Assembly: GCA_964486455.1 (NCBI GenBank)
Contig: CAZAMP010000018.1
Coordinates: forward strand, 14,971-78,970
Source of the DNA: an uncultured bacterium
Lineage (GTDB): Bacteria > Eisenbacteria > RBG-16-71-46 > CAZAMP01
DNA: 64,000 nt
Direction of reading: 5' to 3'
In this document: in pieces, positions 5,781-60,876 of the stretch
How the letters are laid out: the number at the start of each line of letters is the position of its first letter
Position numbering within the stretch: the stretch's first letter is position 1
Made by a program: the position numbers and the translations under genes
Notes under the pieces: model-generated
What the model was told of the DNA's origin: nothing
The model's input: only the letters and a program-made list of their open reading frames with translations
Databases searched by the model: none

Positions 5781-6941
5781 ATGCGTAAGAAACGACTCGA
5801 ACGACTTCGGATCGGATTCGTGCTCGGCGAGCTCGGGATCGGCGGCGCCGAGCGGCAGCTCCTGAAGAAAATCGCCATACTGCAAGACCAAGGCGTGGAC
5901 TGCTTCGTGGTCACGCTTTCGAGCGGCGGCGATCTGACTCAGGCCTTCGCCGCGGAGAAGATCCGGCTTCACGAGATCCCTCGCGGGCACTCGCTCGAGG
6001 TCAGCCGGATGTGGAATCTCATCGGCATCCTGCTCCGCGAGCGACCCACCATCGTTCACGGGGAACTGTACGACGCGGGCGCCTACGCGCGTATCGCCTC
6101 GATGATGGCGGGCGTTCCGATTCGGATCCAGGCGATCCGGTCGACCTACCCGCGCCTCAATCCGAAGTACCGCCTTGCGGAGGAGATTCTCAAGTGGTTC
6201 ACCGACGCCTACATCGTGAACGCCGCCGCGATCAAGCGACGCACGATAGAGCTCCATCGTGTGAATTCGAAAAAGGTGCACGTCGTCTACAACCTCTACG
6301 ACGCCACCGAAGCGCCGCGCTGCACACCGGATGAGATGCGCCGCGAGCTGGGGCTCGTGCCCGGCCGCAAAGTCATCGGTCTCCTCGGCTCGTTCTCCCC
6401 CGAGAAGAACCACGAGCTGTTCTTGCGGTTCGCCCGCGCGCTTATCGATCGCGGAACGGACGCGGAGTTCATGCTCATCGGGGACGGCAAGCTCAGGCCG
6501 AAGATCGAGGCGCAGATTGCGCAGCTCGACCTCGGGTCGCGCGTGCGTCTCCTCGGACTTCGGAGGGACGTGCCCGATCTGCTTCAGGTCCTCGACATCT
6601 CGGTGAACTGCTCGTTTCGCGAAGGGCTCAACAACGCCATCCTGGAATCGCTGGCACTGGGCATCCCCGTTCTGGGGAGCCACGTCGGCGGCACACCCGA
6701 GCTGGTCGAGACGGGGGTGAACGGCGAGACGTTCGAGTCGGACTCGCTCGACGACATGATCGCCAAGGCAGAGATGATGATCCCGCGGATCGAGGAGTAC
6801 CGCGCCCGGATCCGCGAGAACCGCGGAGACTTTCTGCAACGGTTTCAGGCGGACGAGGTCACCCGCCAGACCCTGGACATCTACCTTAAGTGCTTGTCAA
6901 ATCGAGGGTTCGAGCTGGAGAGCCCACCCCACGCCCACTGA
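5781..6941 (+). CDS. GT4 glycosyltransferase (GT-B fold)
   Basis: RIGFVLGELGIGGAERQ N-terminal motif and EGLNNAILESLALGIPVLGSHVGGTPELV C-terminal motif (E-x7-E region). Start trimmed to the ATG at 5781; alternatives are 5712 and 5763. Confidence 0.75.
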   Translation: MRKKRLERLRIGFVLGELGIGGAERQLLKKIAILQDQGVDCFVVTLSSGGDLTQAFAAEKIRLHEIPRGHSLEVSRMWNLIGILLRERPTIVHGELYDAGAYARIASMMAGVPIRIQAIRSTYPRLNPKYRLAEEILKWFTDAYIVNAAAIKRRTIELHRVNSKKVHVVYNLYDATEAPRCTPDEMRRELGLVPGRKVIGLLGSFSPEKNHELFLRFARALIDRGTDAEFMLIGDGKLRPKIEAQIAQLDLGSRVRLLGLRRDVPDLLQVLDISVNCSFREGLNNAILESLALGIPVLGSHVGGTPELVETGVNGETFESDSLDDMIAKAEMMIPRIEEYRARIRENRGDFLQRFQADEVTRQTLDIYLKCLSNRGFELESPPHAH

Positions 6942-7091
6942 CCGGCAGAGCCACGGCAGCTTCGCTTCATGCTCCCCTCTTCTGTCTTGCCCCTGTCCCT
7001 GGAGGCCACGAATTTATCCGATAACAAAGACAGCGTACAGTGATCACACTGAAACCAACGATCCTCACACCATGACAGGCCGACCGGAGTA

Positions 7092-7301
7092 GTGAGCAAA
7101 ATGTATCCGATCGCAGAACTCCTCGGCATCGCGGGAGCAATCCTCGGTCTGGTTTGCACCTTCGCCATCTGGCGAAAGGTGCGCTACGAGAGACAGCATC
7201 TCGAAAGCTCTGACCTTGCCGGGAAGCGGCTAGTCAAGCCCGCTGGATTTGAGGATCTCAAGAATGCCCTGGACGCCACCGAAGATCGATGGCGACGGTG
7301 A
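7092..7301 (+). CDS. Small hypothetical membrane protein (one TM)
   Basis: 69-aa ORF in a lower-GC island with a single hydrophobic helix, followed by two hairpins. Weak support only. Confidence 0.25.
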   Translation: MSKMYPIAELLGIAGAILGLVCTFAIWRKVRYERQHLESSDLAGKRLVKPAGFEDLKNALDATEDRWRR

Positions 7302-7617
7302 AATCCTGCCTAGAGGTGTGTCAGGTTGGAGAGTTCCTCCAACCTGATGCATCATCCAAAGCTGGCTGTTGCCAGCCACATCGCCCGCTCCATGCTGTAC
7401 AAGTGTATGTGACACAATGAATTAGTAGCATTCGCTTGCGTGGTAGGGCCTGTCCTCAAGCGGAATCTCCATGTAGTTGCTGATGCCATCCATTTCCACG
7501 ACTAGTTGCGGTCTGGATCCTGCGACAGATACCATCCACTATCGATAGGCTGGCGGCGCGCCGATAAGACTATCGTGCTACAGCGCCTACATCATTCCGC
7601 ACTGATCCACTAAGGCC

Positions 7618-10326
7618 ATGCATAGGAGCAATCAAGTGCTATCGCGCACGATCATCATCAGTCTCAGCATCGCAGTCCTCGTCGCCGTCGCGGCGGGACC
7701 GGGCTTCGGGTTGACCGTTCGTTCGAGTCACCCGCGCATGTTCGTGTTGCCCGAAGACCTTCCGAAGGTCCGCGCGCGGTGCGCGATCCCCGACGGCAAC
7801 AACCAAGCGCAATACCCGAACGAGTGGAGCACGCATCTCGACCTCTACGAGCAGCTCACCGGGATGGTGGACGACTACCCATCGACGATTCCGGTCTGGG
7901 ACACGGCCGCCAACGGCACCAAGATGGCGAACCTTGCGACGATGTACCTTCTGAACTCGCATCGCTCTCAGGGAAACTCGTACCGCGAGAAGTTCATCGA
8001 GTGGTGGCGCGGAACGCTCGTCTACTCACGCGACCGGAATGGCGGCATCATCGGGCGCATCCTCTCCGGTAACGGGTGGGGCAAGGACGCGAACTGGTCG
8101 TACTGGACGTACGCGTACGACGCGGTCTACAACGCGCTCAGCTCCGACCATGCGCTTCGTGACAGCATCAGCACGCTCATCGGCCGGCAGGTCGAGGTAG
8201 CCTGGGACTCCCCCGACTACTACGAGGATCCGTTCTACAACGCGCCGTGGACCTCGGACGGGCTCCTCGGCGCCTGTCTCGCCGTCAAGGGCGACTATGG
8301 CGCGCGCGCGTGGAACCGCATCGAGCAGGAATTCGACGACTGGCTCGACCACGTCCATGAACGGAAGCTCGAGCAGAATCTGGCGCGGGTGTTGAACTAC
8401 CAGGGCCAGTATCCGATGTGCGGCGGCTACAAGAACCGGCGCATCAAGGAAGACGTGACGACCGCGCTCGCCTGGCGGACCGCCGTCACGGACGAGGACC
8501 CGTTCTTCGAGCACGCCGATCACTTCCGGCAGATCGATGATGCCTATCTCTGGCGGCTTCGCGCGAACTTCCGCGAGTCGGACTGCACCGGAGACGGCCG
8601 TCTCATCGGTCTGGTTGACGACACGCAGTGGCTCTACACGTATCCGTCCGCCTCGATCGACGAGAACGGCGAGGCGCTGTGGGTCCTCGACGAAACGGAA
8701 GAGCAGACCACCGCCGCCAGCGGAAACAAAGAGGTGTGGTTCCGCATCCTCTTCGACGACCGCTCGGTCCAGCGCGTGAACCCCGAGTCGTCGATGCAGA
8801 CGAACATCAAGCACTTCGGGGACCTGACCGTCGAGGACGGACGCACGTCGGAGTACACGTTCATTCGCAGCGACTGGAACTTCAACGTGAACGATCAGAA
8901 CTCCGTCTTCCTATCGTTCTTCTGCGGCCCGACGCTCGGCTGTCACGAGCACGGCGGGTCACAGGGACATCTCGCGATCTTTCGCGGCGATGACGTGATT
9001 TCGGCCCACGCGGGTCTCTACGATCGCCCCGAGAACCGTCACTCGAAGCGGTACGCCGCGCAGACCGTTTCGTACAACACGATCCTGGTCGCCGACCCCG
9101 ACAACCCGTACATCGCGGGCGAGACGGATTCGCTTCGCTACCTCATGCAGCTCGAGGGATGCCAGTTCGAGGCCGAGCGCGTGAACTGGGAGAGCTGCCA
9201 CCTGAACGCGCCGGACAAGCCGTTTCGGGAGGACTACATCCACGGAGGGGTCGACCGCCTGGAACAACTCGAGAACGGCGACACATATCTGCACGCCGAC
9301 TTCACGCGCGCCTACCCCAGCCCGCTCGCGCCCAACGACTGGCCGGACGGCGCGACGGTCGAGAACGCCACCCGTCAGGTGATGCTCGAGGCCGGGACGT
9401 TCGTCGTGGTGTGCGACCGCGTAACCTCCGTCAATCCGAACGCCGTCAAGCGTGTCCGGTGGCATTGCCCCAACCCGAACAGCTTCGTGCTGATCGACGG
9501 TTCCTGGACCGGGGGGACGCCGCCCTACACCGTGATCTACGGCGGAACGCCGGGGCAGTGGAGCACGGACGCCGTCCGGATTCGTTGGGACAGCTGGATC
9601 GACGATGTGGTAGGCGACTCCCGCATGTTCGGCACGATCCTCTACCCGGTCCCGGCCGCATCCGGCGGACCCGGACGAAAGCTCGTGCGCGTCGGCGGCT
9701 CGAATTCGTCCGGCGAGTGGAACATGGGCCGCACGTCGGGCGACAAGCCGTGCTGCGACGACCACAACGACGCGGACAACAGCTACGAGTTCTGGCTGCC
9801 CGAGGCGGAGTTCAATCAGAAGGCCCGCGCCCGAAACTGCTCGGGCGACTGCCAGACCGGCACGAGCGGCAACACCGAGCGATCGAACGGTTCCTACGGC
9901 TTCTGGGTCCTCGACACGGAAGCCACGGGCTGGAAGGACCACGTGTTCCTCCACGCTTTCGAAATCACGGCCAAGTCGCAGTCGCAGCCGACGATGATCG
10001 ACTACTTGGATGATGTCGACGCCGAGCACATCGGCTGTGAGATCCAGCTCGCCGGCACGAGCCGCATCAACGTCTTTAGCCGCGACGAAGAGCCGGACAT
10101 CCAGATCAGCTACCAGAGCTCGCTGCTCACACCGATCCAACACCTCATCGCGGACCTCGTGCCGGGACTGTATCTCGTCGAGGAACTGACGTCGGGGTTC
10201 ACGGCCCAGGTGACGGTGCGTGATCAATCGAACGTCGCGTCGTTCGAGACGCCGTCGGGCGGCACGTTCCGGGTAACGCGGATCGCGGGTGGGGGCGACG
10301 TAGCGCGCGTCGTTACCGCCGACTGA
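7618..10326 (+). CDS. Secreted heparinase II/III-like family protein (polysaccharide lyase or uronyl C5-epimerase candidate)
   Basis: N-terminal signal/TM, 902 aa. C-terminal region FFCGPTLGCHEHGGSQGHLAIFRGDDVISAHAGLYD matches the His-rich motif of the heparinase II/III C-terminal beta-sandwich domain. A possible GTG start at 7636 follows an AGGAG. Confidence 0.6.
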   Translation: MHRSNQVLSRTIIISLSIAVLVAVAAGPGFGLTVRSSHPRMFVLPEDLPKVRARCAIPDGNNQAQYPNEWSTHLDLYEQLTGMVDDYPSTIPVWDTAANGTKMANLATMYLLNSHRSQGNSYREKFIEWWRGTLVYSRDRNGGIIGRILSGNGWGKDANWSYWTYAYDAVYNALSSDHALRDSISTLIGRQVEVAWDSPDYYEDPFYNAPWTSDGLLGACLAVKGDYGARAWNRIEQEFDDWLDHVHERKLEQNLARVLNYQGQYPMCGGYKNRRIKEDVTTALAWRTAVTDEDPFFEHADHFRQIDDAYLWRLRANFRESDCTGDGRLIGLVDDTQWLYTYPSASIDENGEALWVLDETEEQTTAASGNKEVWFRILFDDRSVQRVNPESSMQTNIKHFGDLTVEDGRTSEYTFIRSDWNFNVNDQNSVFLSFFCGPTLGCHEHGGSQGHLAIFRGDDVISAHAGLYDRPENRHSKRYAAQTVSYNTILVADPDNPYIAGETDSLRYLMQLEGCQFEAERVNWESCHLNAPDKPFREDYIHGGVDRLEQLENGDTYLHADFTRAYPSPLAPNDWPDGATVENATRQVMLEAGTFVVVCDRVTSVNPNAVKRVRWHCPNPNSFVLIDGSWTGGTPPYTVIYGGTPGQWSTDAVRIRWDSWIDDVVGDSRMFGTILYPVPAASGGPGRKLVRVGGSNSSGEWNMGRTSGDKPCCDDHNDADNSYEFWLPEAEFNQKARARNCSGDCQTGTSGNTERSNGSYGFWVLDTEATGWKDHVFLHAFEITAKSQSQPTMIDYLDDVDAEHIGCEIQLAGTSRINVFSRDEEPDIQISYQSSLLTPIQHLIADLVPGLYLVEELTSGFTAQVTVRDQSNVASFETPSGGTFRVTRIAGGGDVARVVTAD

Positions 10327-54310: not shown

Positions 54311-54577
54311 TCACTCGCCCGGGCCGTCCCCCGTCACCTCTCCCTGCCCCTGCATCTCACGCTCGGCGATGAGGTCCTCGAGGCGTTCCTTCTCCATCAC
54401 GAGATCCTCGAGCGCCATGGCCTCGTAGTCGCTGTCCGATTCGCCGGAGATCTCTATTCCTTGCTTGCGCAGCCATCCATCGATCTGACGCTGGTTGCGC
54501 TTGTAGGCATAGAAACCGACTGCCGCGGCTCCGAGTCCGATGACGAAGCCGGTCACGTGGTTGTTGTTTACCGCCAT
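54311..54577 (-). CDS. Small hypothetical membrane protein
   Basis: 88-aa ORF with one TM helix and an acidic tail. Weak support. Confidence 0.3.
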   Translation of the reverse strand: MAVNNNHVTGFVIGLGAAAVGFYAYKRNQRQIDGWLRKQGIEISGESDSDYEAMALEDLVMEKERLEDLIAEREMQGQGEVTGDGPGE

Positions 54578-54632: not shown

Positions 54633-55541
54633 CTATGTGTCCGTATTCAATCGTCCATCAACCATCGAGCCGAAACGCAGGCGGATGCCGTCCGGCAGCC
54701 CCCCTGTTCCTTCGAGCCCGTCGCCGTGCTCGCACGCGACCTCGTTGAGTTCGGCGAGTAGCTGCCGCCGCCCGTAGGCGCCGCCCGTCTTCCCGCGACT
54801 GACAAAGCTCCCCATGAGCTGTCGGATGCGGCGCCTCTGGGAGAGCGCCGGATCGGGTGTGAGATGTATGTCGTAGCTCACGAGTCCGCCCTCTCCTTCC
54901 CGAACGACGGGCTGGACGAGAACGCCGTCGTGGGGCGCTTCGAACAGATGCCTTCCAAACGTGGCCGCCCACGTCAGAACCGACGCCTTGAAGAGATTCC
55001 CCCGAGGGAACGCCGTCACGAGATATCCGAGCGAAAGAACCTCGGGATCGTAGTAGCCGCGCTCCGACACCTCCCGCCACGCATGATCGAGCACCGCGTA
55101 GGCGGTACCGGCGCCGGCGAGCCAGTCCGCGGGACTCCTTCGCATCGGGCGTCGCGTCGCCCACCGCAAAAGCCCGGCCGACAGCAACAGCACGCCCGAG
55201 AGAACCGCGCTGCTCGTGAAGTCCTCCTTGTCCGGCTCCGCCAAGAGCCGTACCGGCAGGGCGTCGTTGTCCAACGAAAGCGCGATCGCCACGCGTAGCG
55301 CGATCTCCTCGGTCGTGAACTGCGCGGTACGATGCCGAACCAGAAGCGAGCGGGTCGCGGGCGAGAAACGCAAGTGCTCGATCCCGGCATGTCCGCTCAG
55401 TGCCGCGATCATCCGCTCCACGTCCGCGGGCATGTGGGAGAGTCGCATGCGAACGCGCCCGGGCAAGCGGTGGATGATGGTCACCGCGGGTCGAACCGTC
55501 TGCTCCTGCCCCGCCGTTCGGACGACGTCGTTCCGGTTCAC
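54633..55541 (-). CDS. Cysteine-less HMA-like (ferredoxin-fold) domain protein, 4th gene of the P-type ATPase operon
   Basis: N-terminal HRLPGRVRMRL...IEHLRFSPATRSLLVRH module. Start overlaps the ATPase stop (ATGA). Confidence 0.5.
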   Translation of the reverse strand: MNRNDVVRTAGQEQTVRPAVTIIHRLPGRVRMRLSHMPADVERMIAALSGHAGIEHLRFSPATRSLLVRHRTAQFTTEEIALRVAIALSLDNDALPVRLLAEPDKEDFTSSAVLSGVLLLSAGLLRWATRRPMRRSPADWLAGAGTAYAVLDHAWREVSERGYYDPEVLSLGYLVTAFPRGNLFKASVLTWAATFGRHLFEAPHDGVLVQPVVREGEGGLVSYDIHLTPDPALSQRRRIRQLMGSFVSRGKTGGAYGRRQLLAELNEVACEHGDGLEGTGGLPDGIRLRFGSMVDGRLNTDT

Positions 55542-57742
55542 CGTATTCTCTCCACGTCGTGTAGAAGAAGTCGCGACGAGTTCAGCACGACCGCCACTGT
55601 CGTGGCGTTGTGCAGGACCGCCCCCCAGAAGACCGGAAGAACGCCGCTTGCCGCCAGCACCAGGCCGAGCGTGTTCACCCCGATCGCCGTGCCGAAGTTC
55701 TGACGAACGGTCGCCATCGTCTTCTGCGCCAGCCGGATCACCGCGGGGATCATGAGCGGCTCCTCGCTGGTGATCGTGATGTCGGCCGCCTCCATCGCGA
55801 TGTCGGTTCGCGTCCCGCCCATGGCGATCCCGACGTCGGCGTAGGCAAGCGCCGGAGCGTCATTGATCCCGTCACCCACCATCACGACCCGTGATCCCTT
55901 CGATTGCAGCTTGAGGATCGTGTCGGCCTTGTCGTCGGGGAGCACTTCTGCTTCGAATCGATCCATCGCCATCCGGCTCGCGACGATCTCGGCGTGCTGC
56001 TCGACGTCGCCCGTGAGCAGGATGATGTCGTCCATCCCGCTCTGTCTCAGCCGGTTCAGTGCCTTCTTCATGTTCTCGCGGAGCGAGTCCTGGATCCCGA
56101 GCACGCCGATCAGATACTTACCACGCGCGACGTAGATGATGTTCTCACCCTTTCGAGCGAGCGCACTCACCGCTTCCTCCGCCGACGCCAGGCCGATGCC
56201 GTTCTCCATCATGAAGCGGCGGCTGCCGACGCGGATCGTGCTTCTCGCCACCCGCGTCGAGACGCCGCGCGCCGTGTGCGTTTCGTTGTCCGTGTGGCGG
56301 GGGATTTCCCAGCCGCCGCGACGCGCGCGATCCATGATGGCGACCGCCATCGGATGCGTACTCGTCTCCTCGGCCGCCGCGGCGAGCCGCACGAGGTCCT
56401 GCCGCTCGACGTTGTCGCGTAGCGGAACGACAGACGTCACGCGGGGACGGCCCTCCGTCATCGTTCCCGTCTTATCCAACACCAGTGTCTCGGCCTCGGA
56501 AAGGAGCTCGAGGTAGTTGCTGCCCTTGACGAGCACGCCGAAGCGCGCCGCCGTGCAGATGGCCGCCGAGAGCGCGGTGGCCGTCGAAAGTCTCACGCCG
56601 CACGAGTAGTCGATAATGAGCATGTTGAGCGCGCGGCTCGTCTTGCCGGTGATGATGAGCACGAGGAGCGCTAGAGCGAAGTTCGCGGGGATGAACTGAG
56701 CGCTGAACTTGTCGGCGAACGCCTGAATCGTCGCCTTTCGGTGGGACGCCTCCTCCACCATGTTGACGATGCGTGAGACGGCCGTCTCATCACCGACCTT
56801 CTCGGCGCGGATGACGAGCTTCCCGCTCGTCACGACGGTTCCGGCGAAGACCATCGTGCCGATGACCTTTCGCGCCGGCATGAACTCCCCGGTGATCGAC
56901 GCCTGATCCACCGCGGCCTCGCCCGACTCGACCTTTCCATCGACGCTGATCTTCTCGCCGGTGTGGACGATGATCCGGTCGCCCACCTGCAACGCATCGA
57001 GAGGCACGTGCTCTTCGGTGCCGTCCTTGCGAAGCCGCCACACCTGCTCTTCGCCCACCGACAACATCTCGCGGATCGCCTTGCGCGTTCGCTCCATGGT
57101 CCAGGCCGTGAGAAGTTCGGCGATGTCGGCGAGCCAAATGATCGTGAGCGCGGACGTATCGCGACCGGCGACGATGCTCGAGAGGATGGCGCTCGCGCTG
57201 AGTGTATCCGCGTTGGGCCGAAAGCTCTCCCGGAGCGACGCCCAGCCGCTCTTGAGTATTGGGACCGCCAGCGACAGGCTCGTCAGCGCGGGCATGGTCA
57301 AGAACCGCCCGATGAACGTCGTCGGTGGCGTCACGCTACCCCGGCGCATCCAGACGAAGAGCAACGTCACCGTCGTCGCGACGACCCGCCCGATCAACTC
57401 GCTGACCGGCTCTTCCTGAAGGCGACGTTCCTGGACGGTGAGTCTCGCCTGCTCGGCGCGCTGTTCCTTGTAGGCCGCGAGCGAATACGTGCCCACAACC
57501 GACTCGACGAGATCGAGGACGTCCTCCCCGCCGAGGCGGCTGCGATCGCAATGGACGAGAACATTGCGCGTGATGATCGACACCGTGACGGAGTCGATGC
57601 CCGACATCTCGATCAGGCGGTCGTGGATCTCACTTACGTACTCACCCAGGTAGCCCAGAGCGGGCGACGCTACGCGGATCCGGCCGGCGAGCTCGTGGCG
57701 GATCTCGCAATGCGTCAGCGGTTTTCTACGTTTCCACCACAT
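55538..57742 (-). CDS. P-type ATPase, P1B-like (heavy-metal-type) with atypical SCG transmembrane motif and N-terminal cysteine-less HMA-like domain
   Basis: DKTGTMTEG phosphorylation motif, GDGINDAPAL hinge and TGE-like actuator region. The CPC position reads DYSCGVRL. Start trimmed to MWWKRRKPL. Confidence 0.85.
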   Translation of the reverse strand: MWWKRRKPLTHCEIRHELAGRIRVASPALGYLGEYVSEIHDRLIEMSGIDSVTVSIITRNVLVHCDRSRLGGEDVLDLVESVVGTYSLAAYKEQRAEQARLTVQERRLQEEPVSELIGRVVATTVTLLFVWMRRGSVTPPTTFIGRFLTMPALTSLSLAVPILKSGWASLRESFRPNADTLSASAILSSIVAGRDTSALTIIWLADIAELLTAWTMERTRKAIREMLSVGEEQVWRLRKDGTEEHVPLDALQVGDRIIVHTGEKISVDGKVESGEAAVDQASITGEFMPARKVIGTMVFAGTVVTSGKLVIRAEKVGDETAVSRIVNMVEEASHRKATIQAFADKFSAQFIPANFALALLVLIITGKTSRALNMLIIDYSCGVRLSTATALSAAICTAARFGVLVKGSNYLELLSEAETLVLDKTGTMTEGRPRVTSVVPLRDNVERQDLVRLAAAAEETSTHPMAVAIMDRARRGGWEIPRHTDNETHTARGVSTRVARSTIRVGSRRFMMENGIGLASAEEAVSALARKGENIIYVARGKYLIGVLGIQDSLRENMKKALNRLRQSGMDDIILLTGDVEQHAEIVASRMAMDRFEAEVLPDDKADTILKLQSKGSRVVMVGDGINDAPALAYADVGIAMGGTRTDIAMEAADITITSEEPLMIPAVIRLAQKTMATVRQNFGTAIGVNTLGLVLAASGVLPVFWGAVLHNATTVAVVLNSSRLLLHDVERIR

Positions 57743-57752
57743 CGTCCGACCT

Positions 57753-58178
57753 TCAGTCCGTGAGCAGTCTTTGCGGTACGGTGAGATGAGGGTTGAGCCC
57801 GAGTGATCCATCGAGCGACGTCTTGACGAACTCGACGAGCTGCCCACGCCGGGCGTACAGCCGGTCCGCCGGTTGCGCCTCAAGTCGTTCGCGGTTTCGA
57901 AGGATGACCTCGAAGAGTGCGCTCAGATAGCCGAGCACTTCATCTTCCTTCACGCTGGCCGCATCGTAGAGAATCAAGATATTCCCCGAGACGTGGTCGG
58001 TGCTGACTTCTCGAATCTGATCCGGAACGGTGAAGAGCGCCGTCAAGAGATCAATGATCTCGGACCGGTTTCCGGTGACCTTCTTGAGCCACGGAAGATG
58101 CACGCGGAGACGTCCTGGAAGACGATGGAGCACGCGCGGCTTGAAGATGAGTCGGAAAACCGCGTTGGACATCTTCAT
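57753..58178 (-). CDS. Cysteine-less HMA-like domain protein (2nd gene of the operon)
   Basis: LHRLPGRLRVHLPWLKKVTGNRSEIIDLL...ILILYD. The ATG overlaps the stop of the upstream gene (ATGA). Confidence 0.5.
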   Translation of the reverse strand: MKMSNAVFRLIFKPRVLHRLPGRLRVHLPWLKKVTGNRSEIIDLLTALFTVPDQIREVSTDHVSGNILILYDAASVKEDEVLGYLSALFEVILRNRERLEAQPADRLYARRGQLVEFVKTSLDGSLGLNPHLTVPQRLLTD

Positions 58179-58765
58179 GCGTGTTCCCCGGCGCCTCGAC
58201 CGCGCAGCATGTGTGTCGCCCACCAGAGTAGAGTGAACCCGGTGGGGAGAGAGCTTCGCCCTTCCATGATGAGCTTACGTACGCCGAGCCCCGCCATCGC
58301 GAGCGCCCCCAAGGTCCAGAGGTCGACGAGCCCTCCCGTCTTCTCGTACACCGCCCGGTTGACGCTCTGTCCGTAGTCCTGCAGCTCGCGGGCCACGGTG
58401 GGAACCGGAGCGCGCTCCAGCTCTTCCTCCAGCCCAAGCAGTCTGGCGATCGCGGCGAGTAGCAGGTCGGCTCGTAGCGCGTCCGGATCGAAATGGATCA
58501 AGACGCCTCCCGAGAGCGCACTGATGTCGAGACGATGAATCCCGCTCACCCCGCCGAGCTTCGACTCGAGACGCTCCCGTCCTACCTCGTTCCCGACGAG
58601 CGACGGGACGCGGAAGCGCGCGCGGCCGGGCAACGTGTGCTCGACATGGATAGGCCCGGTGCGAAACGCCGGCACCGACGATCCGGCCCTTGCGGATCTC
58701 TGCCCGCGACCCTTTCCCCGCCGTCGCAGGAGAGCGGCAATGATCATCCCGGTCAGGATGTGCAT
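58175..58765 (-). CDS. Cysteine-less HMA-like domain membrane protein (1st gene of the operon)
   Basis: N-terminal TM, then HVEHTLPGRARFRVPSLVGNEVGRERLESKLGGVSGIHRLDISALSGGVLIHFD and a C-terminal TM. GAGGA RBS upstream. Confidence 0.5.
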   Translation of the reverse strand: MHILTGMIIAALLRRRGKGRGQRSARAGSSVPAFRTGPIHVEHTLPGRARFRVPSLVGNEVGRERLESKLGGVSGIHRLDISALSGGVLIHFDPDALRADLLLAAIARLLGLEEELERAPVPTVARELQDYGQSVNRAVYEKTGGLVDLWTLGALAMAGLGVRKLIMEGRSSLPTGFTLLWWATHMLRGRGAGEHA

Positions 58766-58788
58766 CCGACCATCCTCATCACAGATTA

Positions 58789-58802
58789 TTAGCTGCAGCT
58801 AA
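58789..58802. promoter_or_regulatory. Palindromic operator-like site TTAGCTGCAGCTAA (copy 1 of an approximately 22 bp motif), 24 bp upstream of the ATPase-operon start
   Basis: Perfect 14-bp palindrome. With its flank (TTAGCTGCAGCTAACTTCTTAG) it is the inverted counterpart of the site at 58917-58930. Confidence 0.5.
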
Positions 58803-58916
58803 CTTCTTAGTGACTCCGCCGCGGCCCCACGCGCCGACGATCGACACGAGACTATACCCACCGGCGCCGAACGGGCGCAAGGGGCAAGCTTCCCGAAATG
58901 CAGTCGTTTGAAGAAG

Positions 58917-58930
58917 TTAGCTATGGCTAA
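58917..58930. promoter_or_regulatory. Palindromic operator-like site TTAGCTATGGCTAA (copy 2, inverted orientation)
   Basis: The reverse complement with its flank (TTAGCCATAGCTAACTTCTTC) matches copy 1 at 18 of 21 positions. Lies between the MntR/DtxR-like gene and the ATPase operon. Confidence 0.5.
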
Positions 58931-58964
58931 TATTCAACGGATCTCAACGCGAAACAGCTCCGCG

Positions 58965-59417
58965 TCACGTTGCCGAATCGAGGCGCCGCCGGCGTCCCTG
59001 CGCGTGGATTCGATGCTGTAGCCGCCGGATCCACGCATCGGAGGAGAGGGAGAAGCCGACGAGCAGTTCCAATCGCCAGAGCGCCTCCGGGCCCAGATGA
59101 TGACCCAGGCGGCTGATCATCGGCTGGGCCTCGGCCGTCCCCATGGCGAGGATGTCCTCGAAAAGCCTTGTCAGACAACGATTTCTGCGGACGATGTCGC
59201 TTCCGGCGCGGCGGCCCGCCTCCGTCAGCACGATGTCTCCGTAGGCCTTGTGCGTGATGAGCCCGCGCTTGGTGAGCTGCGAGACCGCCCGGCTGGCACT
59301 CGGCAGTCTCACCCCCAAGCGTGCCGCCAGGTCCCGGACCCGAACACGGCCGTCCTCGGAGAGTCGATAGATCCACTCCAGATAGCTCTCCTGGCTCGGC
59401 GTCAGCTCCACGGGCAT
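58965..59417 (-). CDS. DtxR/MntR-family metal-dependent transcriptional regulator (short, MntR-like, no SH3 domain)
   Basis: Start trimmed to MPVELTPSQESYLEWIY (GGAGG RBS upstream). Winged-helix LAARLGVRLPSASRAVSQLTKRGLI, then a metal-site/dimerisation region. Confidence 0.75.
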   Translation of the reverse strand: MPVELTPSQESYLEWIYRLSEDGRVRVRDLAARLGVRLPSASRAVSQLTKRGLITHKAYGDIVLTEAGRRAGSDIVRRNRCLTRLFEDILAMGTAEAQPMISRLGHHLGPEALWRLELLVGFSLSSDAWIRRLQHRIHAQGRRRRLDSAT

Positions 59418-59649
59418 CGCTCCTCCAAACTGTCCACAAAAAGTTAGTCTACCGCTAAGATTGCGCCAACGCAAGCCGGGAAGCCGACCTGGGACCCCAT
59501 CGCGCTCGGCCATGTGAATGACCGTGCAACCTTGCCGGGCCGCCAGGGCACTCAGGAATGACGGCGGTCGACCGGCATGTGGCCGGCTGGAGTCGGCACG
59601 CACCGCCCGATTAGCTTTCTGAAACTCCCTCAATCCGAAAGGACCTGAA

Positions 59650-60876
59650 ATGTTGAGATTCAAGTCGATCGTCCTGCTGGCCGGGATCGTCGCTCTGCTG
59701 ACAGCGAGCACGGTCATTGCCGCGGAGCCCGTCCACGTCACGTCGTTCAAGTCGGCGCGGAAGCTCGCGGCCAAGCAGGAGCTGCCGATCCTCCTGAAGA
59801 TGGGCAAGGAGTTCTGCACGTCATGCAGCAAGTTCGATCAGGCCGTCGATGAGGATGACGAGTTTCGCGATGTGATCGAGAAGAACGTCGTCCTGTGTGT
59901 GATCGACGTGCGAAAGGGCGAGGGCGCCGAGCTCGCGCGTCGGTACCACGCGTCCGACTATCCGATCCCAACGTTCATTCTGACGAACAGCCACGGCGAG
60001 GAGATGGACCGGTGGCTCGGCTACTGGGACAGCGACAACTTCGTCAAGCATCTGACCGCGGCCGTCGAGAACCCGATCACGGTTGACAAGCGGATGGCGC
60101 GCTTCCAGGAAAGCCCGACGGAAGCAGATGCGCGAAAGCTGGCAGAGCTACGCGACTATCAGGGTCTCTTCGCGGAGGCCGTCGCCTATTTCCGCCGTGC
60201 CCAGGCGCTCAATCCCGACTCCGAAACCGACTACGACCTCTACGTGCTCAGCGCGATGACACAGGGCGAGTACGACAACATCTTCACCGCGGACGAGGTG
60301 AAGGCGCAGGCGGACCGCGTCGTGTCGACCGAGACCTGTGGCGCCACCGGGTACATGAAGGCCGCGATGTCGATGGCCAAGGTAGCCAAGCACACGAAGG
60401 ACAACAGCTACTACACGCCTTACCTGGCGTTGGCCATAGAGAAGACGGAAGGCAAAGAGGACGACCCGAAGCTCCTGAAGGGGCGCGTCAACCTCCTTCC
60501 GGATTACGCGCTCTACGTGGAGAAGGACGAGGATAAGGCGATCGCGCTGAAGAAGGAATTCTTCGCCAAAGCGGCCGGAGAAGAAGACTGGATGACCGTC
60601 GCCAACATGCTCAACAACTTCGCGTGGTGGTGCTTCGAAAACGAGTTCAATCTCGATGAGGCCGAGGAGCTTGCCCGCCAAGGCATCGAGTTCGCCAAGC
60701 CGGGCAACCAGAAGGCCAACATCTTCGATACGGTGGCCGAGATTTGCAACCTGAAGGGCGACTGCGGCGACGCCGTCACGCTCATCCGTATGGCCGTCGC
60801 GGAGGACCCGGAGAACGAGTATTTCCAGAAGCAGCTCGGACGGTTCGAGGAGCTACTTCGAGCGCAGTCGGACTAG
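59650..60876 (+). CDS. Secreted thioredoxin-fold protein with C-terminal helical (TPR-like) domain
   Basis: Signal peptide and a CTSC (CxxC) motif 30 aa after the signal cleavage region. Family assignment is tentative. Confidence 0.5.
   Translation: MLRFKSIVLLAGIVALLTASTVIAAEPVHVTSFKSARKLAAKQELPILLKMGKEFCTSCSKFDQAVDEDDEFRDVIEKNVVLCVIDVRKGEGAELARRYHASDYPIPTFILTNSHGEEMDRWLGYWDSDNFVKHLTAAVENPITVDKRMARFQESPTEADARKLAELRDYQGLFAEAVAYFRRAQALNPDSETDYDLYVLSAMTQGEYDNIFTADEVKAQADRVVSTETCGATGYMKAAMSMAKVAKHTKDNSYYTPYLALAIEKTEGKEDDPKLLKGRVNLLPDYALYVEKDEDKAIALKKEFFAKAAGEEDWMTVANMLNNFAWWCFENEFNLDEAEELARQGIEFAKPGNQKANIFDTVAEICNLKGDCGDAVTLIRMAVAEDPENEYFQKQLGRFEELLRAQSD

Follow-up and report, generated by a model that had tools for sequence, protein, structure and literature searches.

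The window, by which we mean the whole 64-kb stretch of DNA analysed here, contains a regulator gene, a 199-bp spacer that holds two palindromic sites, and then a tightly packed five-gene operon that reaches from 58765 to 54311, all of these genes lying on the minus strand (Table 1). An earlier, sequence-only reading of the same DNA had described the downstream genes as an ATPase operon; that description is confirmed, and the identification of the operon as a fez-like cluster is added by the present analysis. We call the operon fez-like because its ATPase signatures, R-rich motifs and GxxxG protein agree, with one deviation in an ATPase motif, with the definition of Grant et al. (10.1101/2020.01.10.902569; Nature 2022), in which, as given in the part of that work drawn on here, a fez cluster consists of a P1B-6 ATPase, FezB, with D[Y/F]SCA and HNxxT, together with R-rich motifs and GxxxG proteins. 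Judged from its genes alone, the five-gene operon is a fez-like (ferrosome-type) cluster.

Table 1. Genes, predicted operators and candidate promoter elements at the locus (window coordinates)
Feature	Coordinates	Strand	Remarks
DtxR/MntR-family two-domain regulator, 150 aa	58965..59417	-	Pfam Fe_dep_repress 6e-13 and Fe_dep_repr_C 3e-9; no SH3 domain; recognition helix LPSASRAV
Gene 1, 196-aa HMA_2 protein, FezC-like	58175..58765	-	Pfam HMA_2 4e-40; R-rich LPGRARFRV; hydrophobic C-terminus
Gene 2, 141-aa HMA_2 protein	57753..58178	-	Pfam HMA_2 3e-7; R-rich LPGRLRVHL
Gene 3, P1B-type ATPase, 734 aa	55541..57742	-	TIGR01525 1e-163; DYSCG, HNATT (candidate FezB/P1B-6 signatures); N-terminal GRIRV
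Gene 4, 302-aa R-rich protein (LPGRVRMRL)	54633..55541	-	Follows the ATPase in all fez-like loci
Gene 5, 88-aa FezA-like protein, last in the operon	54311..54577	-	N-terminal hydrophobic GxxxG segment (GFVIG)
Distal operator (site A), predicted	58917..58930	.	Gene-strand core TTAGCCATAGCTAA; extended form 58913-58934; perfect 10/10 core; PWM score 25.9, from a matrix trained on the sites it scores
Proximal operator (site B), predicted	58789..58802	.	Core TTAGCTGCAGCTAA; perfect; PWM score 23.2, from the same matrix; 23 nt upstream of the operon ATG
Candidate -35 TTGAGA	58942..58947	-	11 nt upstream of site A; putative, with a poor -10 (TAGCTA)
Alternative candidate promoter between the sites	58851..58880	-	TTGCGC (58880-58875), 18 nt, TATAGT (58856-58851); putative, -35 matching at 3/6 positions, hence under the threshold of the promoter scan
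Atypical site in the regulator's own promoter, putative	59444..59458	.	Gene strand TTAGC-GG-TAGACT-AA; 5-bp spacer, right half ACTAA; -10 TAGACT inside

R-rich motifs occur in four of the operon proteins, the ATPase and three others. The DYSCG and HNATT motifs of the ATPase are invariant in the 10 orthologs examined, with the exception of the one in L032, which has HNTCT. The TM4 motif ends in G and the published signature in A, membership being read here by motif and the P1B-6 assignment standing as a candidate one. Shared with the fez clusters of Grant et al. are a candidate P1B-6 ATPase with DYSC[A/G] and HNxxT, the N-terminal R-rich motifs, the small GxxxG protein and the DtxR neighbour, whereas the TM4 ending, the gene order and the presence of two HMA_2 proteins mark a particular sub-type. 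Fur and DtxR genes are common neighbours of fez clusters according to the same part of that work (10.1101/2020.01.10.902569), which names DtxR as a neighbour only and gives no operator. Orthologs of gene 1 come after the regulator in 12 loci, and a Pfam search with the 302-aa R-rich protein gave no match. The mechanical ORF of the ATPase (55538-57883, minus strand) starts at a TTG, is 781 aa long and overlaps with the gene before it; the ATG at 57742 is favoured both by homologs and by gene calls.

The regulator is recognised by two Pfam domains: the N-terminal winged-helix DNA-binding domain PF01325 (residues 4-60; E = 6.3e-13, 49.2 bits versus a cut-off of 26) and the helical dimerisation/metal-binding domain PF02742 (residues 65-122; E = 2.7e-9, 37.3 bits versus a cut-off of 27). 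Both lie above cut-off, in agreement with the sequence-only reading, which had called the gene MntR/DtxR-like. By sequence, the closest solved structures are DR2539, MntR, IdeR and DtxR. Alignments to DtxR and IdeR stop near residue 116, leaving no SH3-like C-terminal domain and an MntR-like architecture. The NCBIfam MntR models are the top matches, far below the equivalog cut-off (67.6 versus 138 bits). A protein search returned 51 homologs with 40%-63% identity.

Within the spacer, TTAGCTGCAGCTAACTTCTTAG at 58789-58810 and GAAGAAGTTAGCTATGGCTAA at 58910-58930 are both present at the coordinates previously reported, and each contains a perfect TTAGC-N4-GCTAA as claimed. Copy 1 and the reverse complement of copy 2 had been said to match at 18 of 21 positions; a recount gives 17/21, and 18/21 is reached only when an RNA-level G-U pair is counted. 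The layout described earlier holds, with corrected figures: the end of core 1 lies 23 nt (rather than 24 bp) upstream of the ATG at 58765, and the two copies, formerly placed about 115 bp apart, have 128 bp between core centres and a gap of 100 bp between the 21-mers. A further 34 nt separate the stop codon of the regulator from the start of core 2.

When up to one mismatch is allowed, sites A and B are the only occurrences of TTAGC-N4-GCTAA within 64 kb, compared to 0.23 in shuffled sequence, and 3/100 shuffles reach two copies. The 20-bp form TTAGC-N4-GCTAACTTCTT, which includes the CTTCTT flank, likewise has two matches in the window, both of them the known sites, on opposite strands. At two mismatches the core is found at six sites in the 64-kb window versus 7.3 expected. 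Since there is no excess, the motif cannot be put down to base composition within the window, nor is it dispersed there as a repeat, and the dispersed repeat that the sequence-only reading had itself set against its proposal finds no support there.

Homologous regulators adjoin the same cluster or feoAB in at least six phyla. The five-gene module also accompanies the regulator in L011, a MAG of Gemmatimonadaceae, in candidate division GN15 (L015), in six Desulfobacterales MAGs and on several unbinned contigs. The closest relatives (L030, P0002 contig) have the order regulator-feoAB-fez, and in L005 the regulator is placed between a divergent fez operon and feoAB. In ~400 kb of non-redundant loci we found 20 perfect cores, compared to 0.27 in shuffles; all perfect cores in these loci adjoin the regulator, the first fez gene or feoA, and the repeat is GCTAA in all 20. 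A symmetrised matrix over the sites gives AAAGTTAGC-N4-GCTAACTTT, an extended consensus that explains much of the AAG/CTT flank similarity between the two copies in the window. The predicted role of the palindrome as a conserved operator of this regulator subfamily is well supported, and the operator reading put forward from the window by itself is borne out by the recurrence of the core beside orthologous regulators in many phyla.

The number and placement of the sites vary. The window, L006 and L011 have two sites between regulator and fez, L015 has one, and L030 has two between regulator and feoA. This two-site layout behind the regulator stop codon, with a distance of 116-146 bp from site to site, is common to the window, L006, L011 and L030. 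In L005, L011, L015 and L030, equivalents of site B precede the first fez or feoA gene by 2-81 nt, the motif abutting the feoA start codon at 9 nt in L005 (a single site) and at 2 nt in L030. Most loci have one site ~50 bp upstream of the regulator itself. The two-site layout is not universal, since a scan of the L005 locus found no site between regulator and fez, the sole site being the one before feoAB, and the Desulfobacterales loci also have none between regulator and fez. Because the only site in the Desulfobacterales loci is upstream of the regulator, a single regulator-fez transcript is suggested for them.

Several features of individual loci may be recorded here. In the Desulfobacterales, the ~300-400 bp gap between regulator and fez (L016 8471-8794, L020 7241-7610, L021 6355-6666) has hydrophobic-looking coding potential. 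The 585-bp spacer between regulator and feoAB in L005 contains two repeated blocks of ~150-200 bp with (CAGCGA)n hexamer arrays (6560-7010), and the operator comes after them. In a locus from Planctomycetota (L013), the regulator gene and that of a 439-aa exported protein of unknown function (6209-7528, minus strand) diverge from a region of 460 bp that holds three perfect sites 74-98 bp apart (7533-7718), with no fez or feo genes nearby. Homologs of the 88-aa GxxxG protein are encoded directly behind the regulator and operator in two Ignavibacteria loci in which no ATPase is shown (L012 6293-6526, L014 8534-8785), and behind feoB in L005 (9545-9796); among the members of the regulon, it may be the most persistent one.

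A blind scan of a metagenome collection for AAGTTAGC-N4-GCTAACTT returned at least 120 loci, covering 732 kb. Among the matches listed, feoAB is present in 12 of 120 loci, within ~30-300 bp of the motif in most of the 12, and a DtxR-family gene (28%-37% identity) in 9 of 120. By a rough estimate, well under one locus of each kind would be expected by chance; the other matches are probably for the most part chance occurrences in a very large database. A perfect 20-bp palindrome lies immediately upstream of feoAB on four unrelated contigs (L088 6830, from human gut; L050 8592; L056 5356; L138 4422), and two of these (L050, L138) additionally encode a distant DtxR relative (36%-37% identity). This type of predicted operator is therefore much more widespread than the fez-linked subfamily.

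A literature search for the exact motif led to classical DtxR papers only. In IdeR, each monomer reads one CCTAA repeat, and a 14-bp single-dimer consensus, TTAGGNNNNCCTAA (TTAGG-N4-CCTAA), has been proposed (Marcos-Torres et al. 2021, PMC8464063). The 5-N4-5 geometry of the present sites equals that consensus, so that the resemblance to a DtxR/IdeR iron-box half-site pointed out in the sequence-only reading is upheld: inverted 5-bp repeats with a 4-bp spacer are common to both, the T-A-A core of the repeat is identical, the reader would be a wHTH dimer of the same family, and P39, S40(T) and S42 of the recognition helix are conserved. The repeat, however, is GCTAA and not CCTAA, a difference of one base per half-site. 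Gln43 of IdeR, which contacts the first base of the repeat, makes the only direct base hydrogen bond, and the aligned residue in the present family is Arg, within LPS(V/A)SRAV. An Arg-guanine contact would be a reasonable cause of the changed base; the residue numbering in this alignment follows what we take to be the DtxR sequence. A further difference, from the 19-bp two-dimer box of IdeR, is that no second, overlapping repeat pair is present, the flanks being WWAG/CTWW only. One dimer per site is therefore expected, which fits the two-domain, MntR-like architecture without the SH3-like third domain of IdeR and DtxR. The sites of the present family also differ in standing as separate pairs 116-146 bp apart.

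Two other groups of known systems invite comparison. The MntR-type regulators (B. subtilis MntR, D. radiodurans DR2539, E. coli MntR) likewise have two domains, a similar size and one dimer per palindrome, but their genomic context is mntH or mntABC and not the iron-related feoAB and fez. The Fur-repressed fez operons of C. difficile and Desulfovibrio resemble the present locus in having an iron-responsive repressor site, here a predicted one, before a FezB cluster, with induction on iron limitation to be expected. They differ in that the repressor is Fur and not DtxR and the operator sequence is another one; the hosts considered here are uncultivated, and ferrosomes have never been observed in them. 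Among the Fur-controlled cases, delta-proteobacteria have been described as having Fur control, not DtxR, including a Fur-controlled P-type ATPase in Desulfovibrio (Rodionov 2004), a C. difficile fur mutant over-produces ferrosomes, and ferrosomes are reported to form "in response to iron limitation".

A consensus scan of 58600-59700 for sigma-70 promoters and terminators found nothing, and the promoter elements discussed here are thus hand-read candidates. In ten relatives (L006, L008, L009, L011, L012, L014, L015, L030, L032, L033) the operator lies inside the regulator's own promoter, the design being TTGACA, 11 nt and TT(A/T)CC-C-TAsGCT-AA, with the -10 element inside a slightly weakened operator. 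L015 deviates in its -35 (TTGCCT) and L012 in a G for the central C. Such a predicted design is one of classic autorepression. The arrangement of TTGAGA, 11 nt and site A upstream of the operon has the same geometry as the TTGACA-N11-operator arrangement of these promoters. The 3' end of site B runs into a -10-like AATAAT (58790 to 58785, minus strand), the third candidate for the operon. For all three candidate operon promoters, site B is at or downstream of the start site and site A at or upstream of the promoter, a layout that fits repression by occlusion, roadblock or looping; the occlusion geometry at the operon promoter is a guess.

The promoter of the window regulator itself (59474-59444) has TTGCGT as its -35 (59469-59474), followed after 10 nt by the atypical site, and the 17-bp spacing between -35 and -10 is kept. 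The sequence-only reading had proposed this third site as a weaker, possibly autoregulatory one. It exists, but the pattern has no significance on its own (one match versus 0.33 expected, with 27% of shuffles reaching at least one). It is nonetheless probably a shifted or weakened operator, because it is positionally equivalent to the autoregulatory operators of the relatives. Autoregulation is plausible to that extent, the 5-bp spacer of the window site being atypical. The 232-bp promoter region of the regulator is shared with a divergent gene (59650-60876, plus strand) whose product is a thioredoxin-like/TPR protein of 408 aa with a signal-like N-terminus.

Taking these observations together, we consider it likely that the two palindromes are operators at which the adjacent DtxR/MntR-family regulator represses the fez-like operon when Fe2+ is sufficient. 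One regulator dimer would occupy each 14-bp TTAGC-N4-GCTAA (extended form AAAGTTAGC-N4-GCTAACTTT). Sites A and B would bracket or overlap the promoter of the five-gene operon, and operator occupancy would block its transcription. If the family and the Fur-controlled fez operons are a guide, the operators would be occupied under Fe2+ sufficiency, and on iron limitation the operon would be expressed together with feoAB-type uptake genes. In this scheme we infer which protein binds, with which metal, where the promoter lies and what sign the regulation has; the likeliest logic is repression when iron is sufficient. The motif abuts feoA, and in L030 the fez genes follow feoAB with no site of their own, which implies that fez would be co-regulated with ferrous-iron uptake and expressed when iron is low.

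Fe2+ as the metal of the family is something we infer from the residues in the ligand columns (N-E-D-H/C-E-H) and from genomic context. The N, E, H-or-C and E columns are kept in 94%-100% of the 51 homologs, and the window regulator alone has S, M, S and G there (S11, M100, S103, G105); the family as a whole has the conserved ligands, and the window regulator does not. At the columns of MntR D8/E11/H77/E99/E102/H103, where MntR reads D-E-H-E-E-H, the homologs have N (51/51), E (47/51), D/S/H, H/C (47/51), E (50/51) and H (50/51), that is, N-E-D-H-E-H for the family, and the window regulator S-E-N-S-G-H. It departs from the other homologs at six of the 50 columns conserved at ≥85%, and three of the six are ligand-like (N11S, E100M, E105G). 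Further changes are an S at the H/C103 column and an N at the D79 column, and the C-terminal VGxTxxHAG tail of the relatives is absent. The identical protein is found on 18 contigs from several samples, and hence the substitutions are not a sequencing error.

Canonical metal activation of the window regulator is questionable because its ligand-like residues are substituted, and its binding to both perfect operators is plausible. The protein may be metal-independent, may respond to something else, or may be backed by a paralog outside the window. The sequence-only proposal of metal-dependent repression by the neighbouring gene thus fares differently in its two parts, the operator and repressor reading gaining from the cross-phylum sites and the metal dependence being weakened by the S/M/S/G substitutions and the missing tail. 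The most probable of the alternatives, though unlikely on balance, is that the operators are real and the regulator no longer senses metal, being either a metal-independent repressor, constitutive or differently signalled, or a decaying gene, with another DtxR-family iron sensor from elsewhere in the genome then serving the sites. The substitutions and the lost tail would be accounted for in this way, as would the atypical 5-bp spacer in the regulator's own promoter and the distribution of divergence along the protein, whose DNA-binding domain has a normal identity (0.67 versus a family norm of 0.70) and whose C-terminal domain has diverged (0.51 versus 0.64). The occurrence of one identical protein on 18 contigs, on the other hand, points to a stable allele; E10, C81 and H106, which are invariant, are still present, as is the recognition helix, the cores of the two fez operators are perfect, and no second DtxR gene was found in the 64-kb window. 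Somewhat less likely again, in our view, is the fuller picture in which the DtxR-family repressor of this lineage has kept its DNA-binding domain and perfect operators and lost its canonical metal site, placing the ferrosome genes under metal-independent or differently signalled control by a DtxR fold, possibly with looping between operators 128 bp apart.

DtxR-family proteins can activate iron-storage genes, as IdeR does with bfrA. The present regulator could in the same way, acting through the upstream site A, activate a storage operon at high iron as IdeR does on bacterioferritin genes, although we regard this as improbable. Fez has a storage function, site A is upstream of the candidate TATAGT promoter, and IdeR and DtxR are dual regulators in actinobacteria according to the part of PMC1382209 drawn on here. 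Whichever candidate promoter is taken, however, site B comes between it and the start codon, the position of the motif at the feoA start codons fits repression, the fez genes of L030 lack a site of their own behind feoAB, and the known fez operons are induced by iron limitation.

A role at the RNA level, in which the two 21-nt arms of a read-through or distal-promoter transcript would pair as a long-range stem in the 5' leader and affect stability or translation, is very improbable. The predicted fold does pair the arms (MFE -79.2 kcal/mol, z = -2.6 versus shuffles), with the G-U pair bringing the match to the 18/21 given above. Against this, each core is self-complementary by itself, the hallmark of a dimer-binding site; single sites stand alone in many loci; and the ribosome-binding site is outside the stem. 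No Rfam family matched the region at E up to 1, and so no known riboswitch or sRNA is present. The long-range stem was set aside in view of the site pairs of other loci (L006, L011, L030), whose spacers and flanks do not covary. It is hardly credible that an AT-rich palindrome pair arose here by chance, or that the arms are terminal inverted repeats belonging to a small mobile element: inverted 21-bp arms ~100 bp apart do resemble a MITE and the intergenic region is AT-richer (56% versus 63% GC), but a MITE or dispersed repeat is rejected by the two copies in 64 kb together with the presence of the same core at orthologous positions across phyla in unrelated flanking DNA.

The favoured mechanism, repression of the fez-like operon by its neighbouring regulator, is ordinary gene control and reveals no new kind of it. 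What is added here is the fez-like identity of the operon, the operator consensus of the subfamily, its tie to the single-dimer IdeR consensus, and the ligand-poor allele. Control of ferrosome (fez) clusters has so far been known only for Fur-controlled cases. The predicted operator provides something concrete and testable for a two-domain DtxR subfamily, widespread and as yet uncharacterised, whose members accompany feoAB and fez in Gemmatimonadota, GN15, Ignavibacteria, Desulfobacterales and others. It allows regulons to be predicted in uncultured genomes, and would bring the genes for ferrous-iron uptake and those for ferrosomes under a single regulator. As a natural variant, the ligand-poor allele of the window could throw light on the coupling of metal sensing to DNA binding in this fold.
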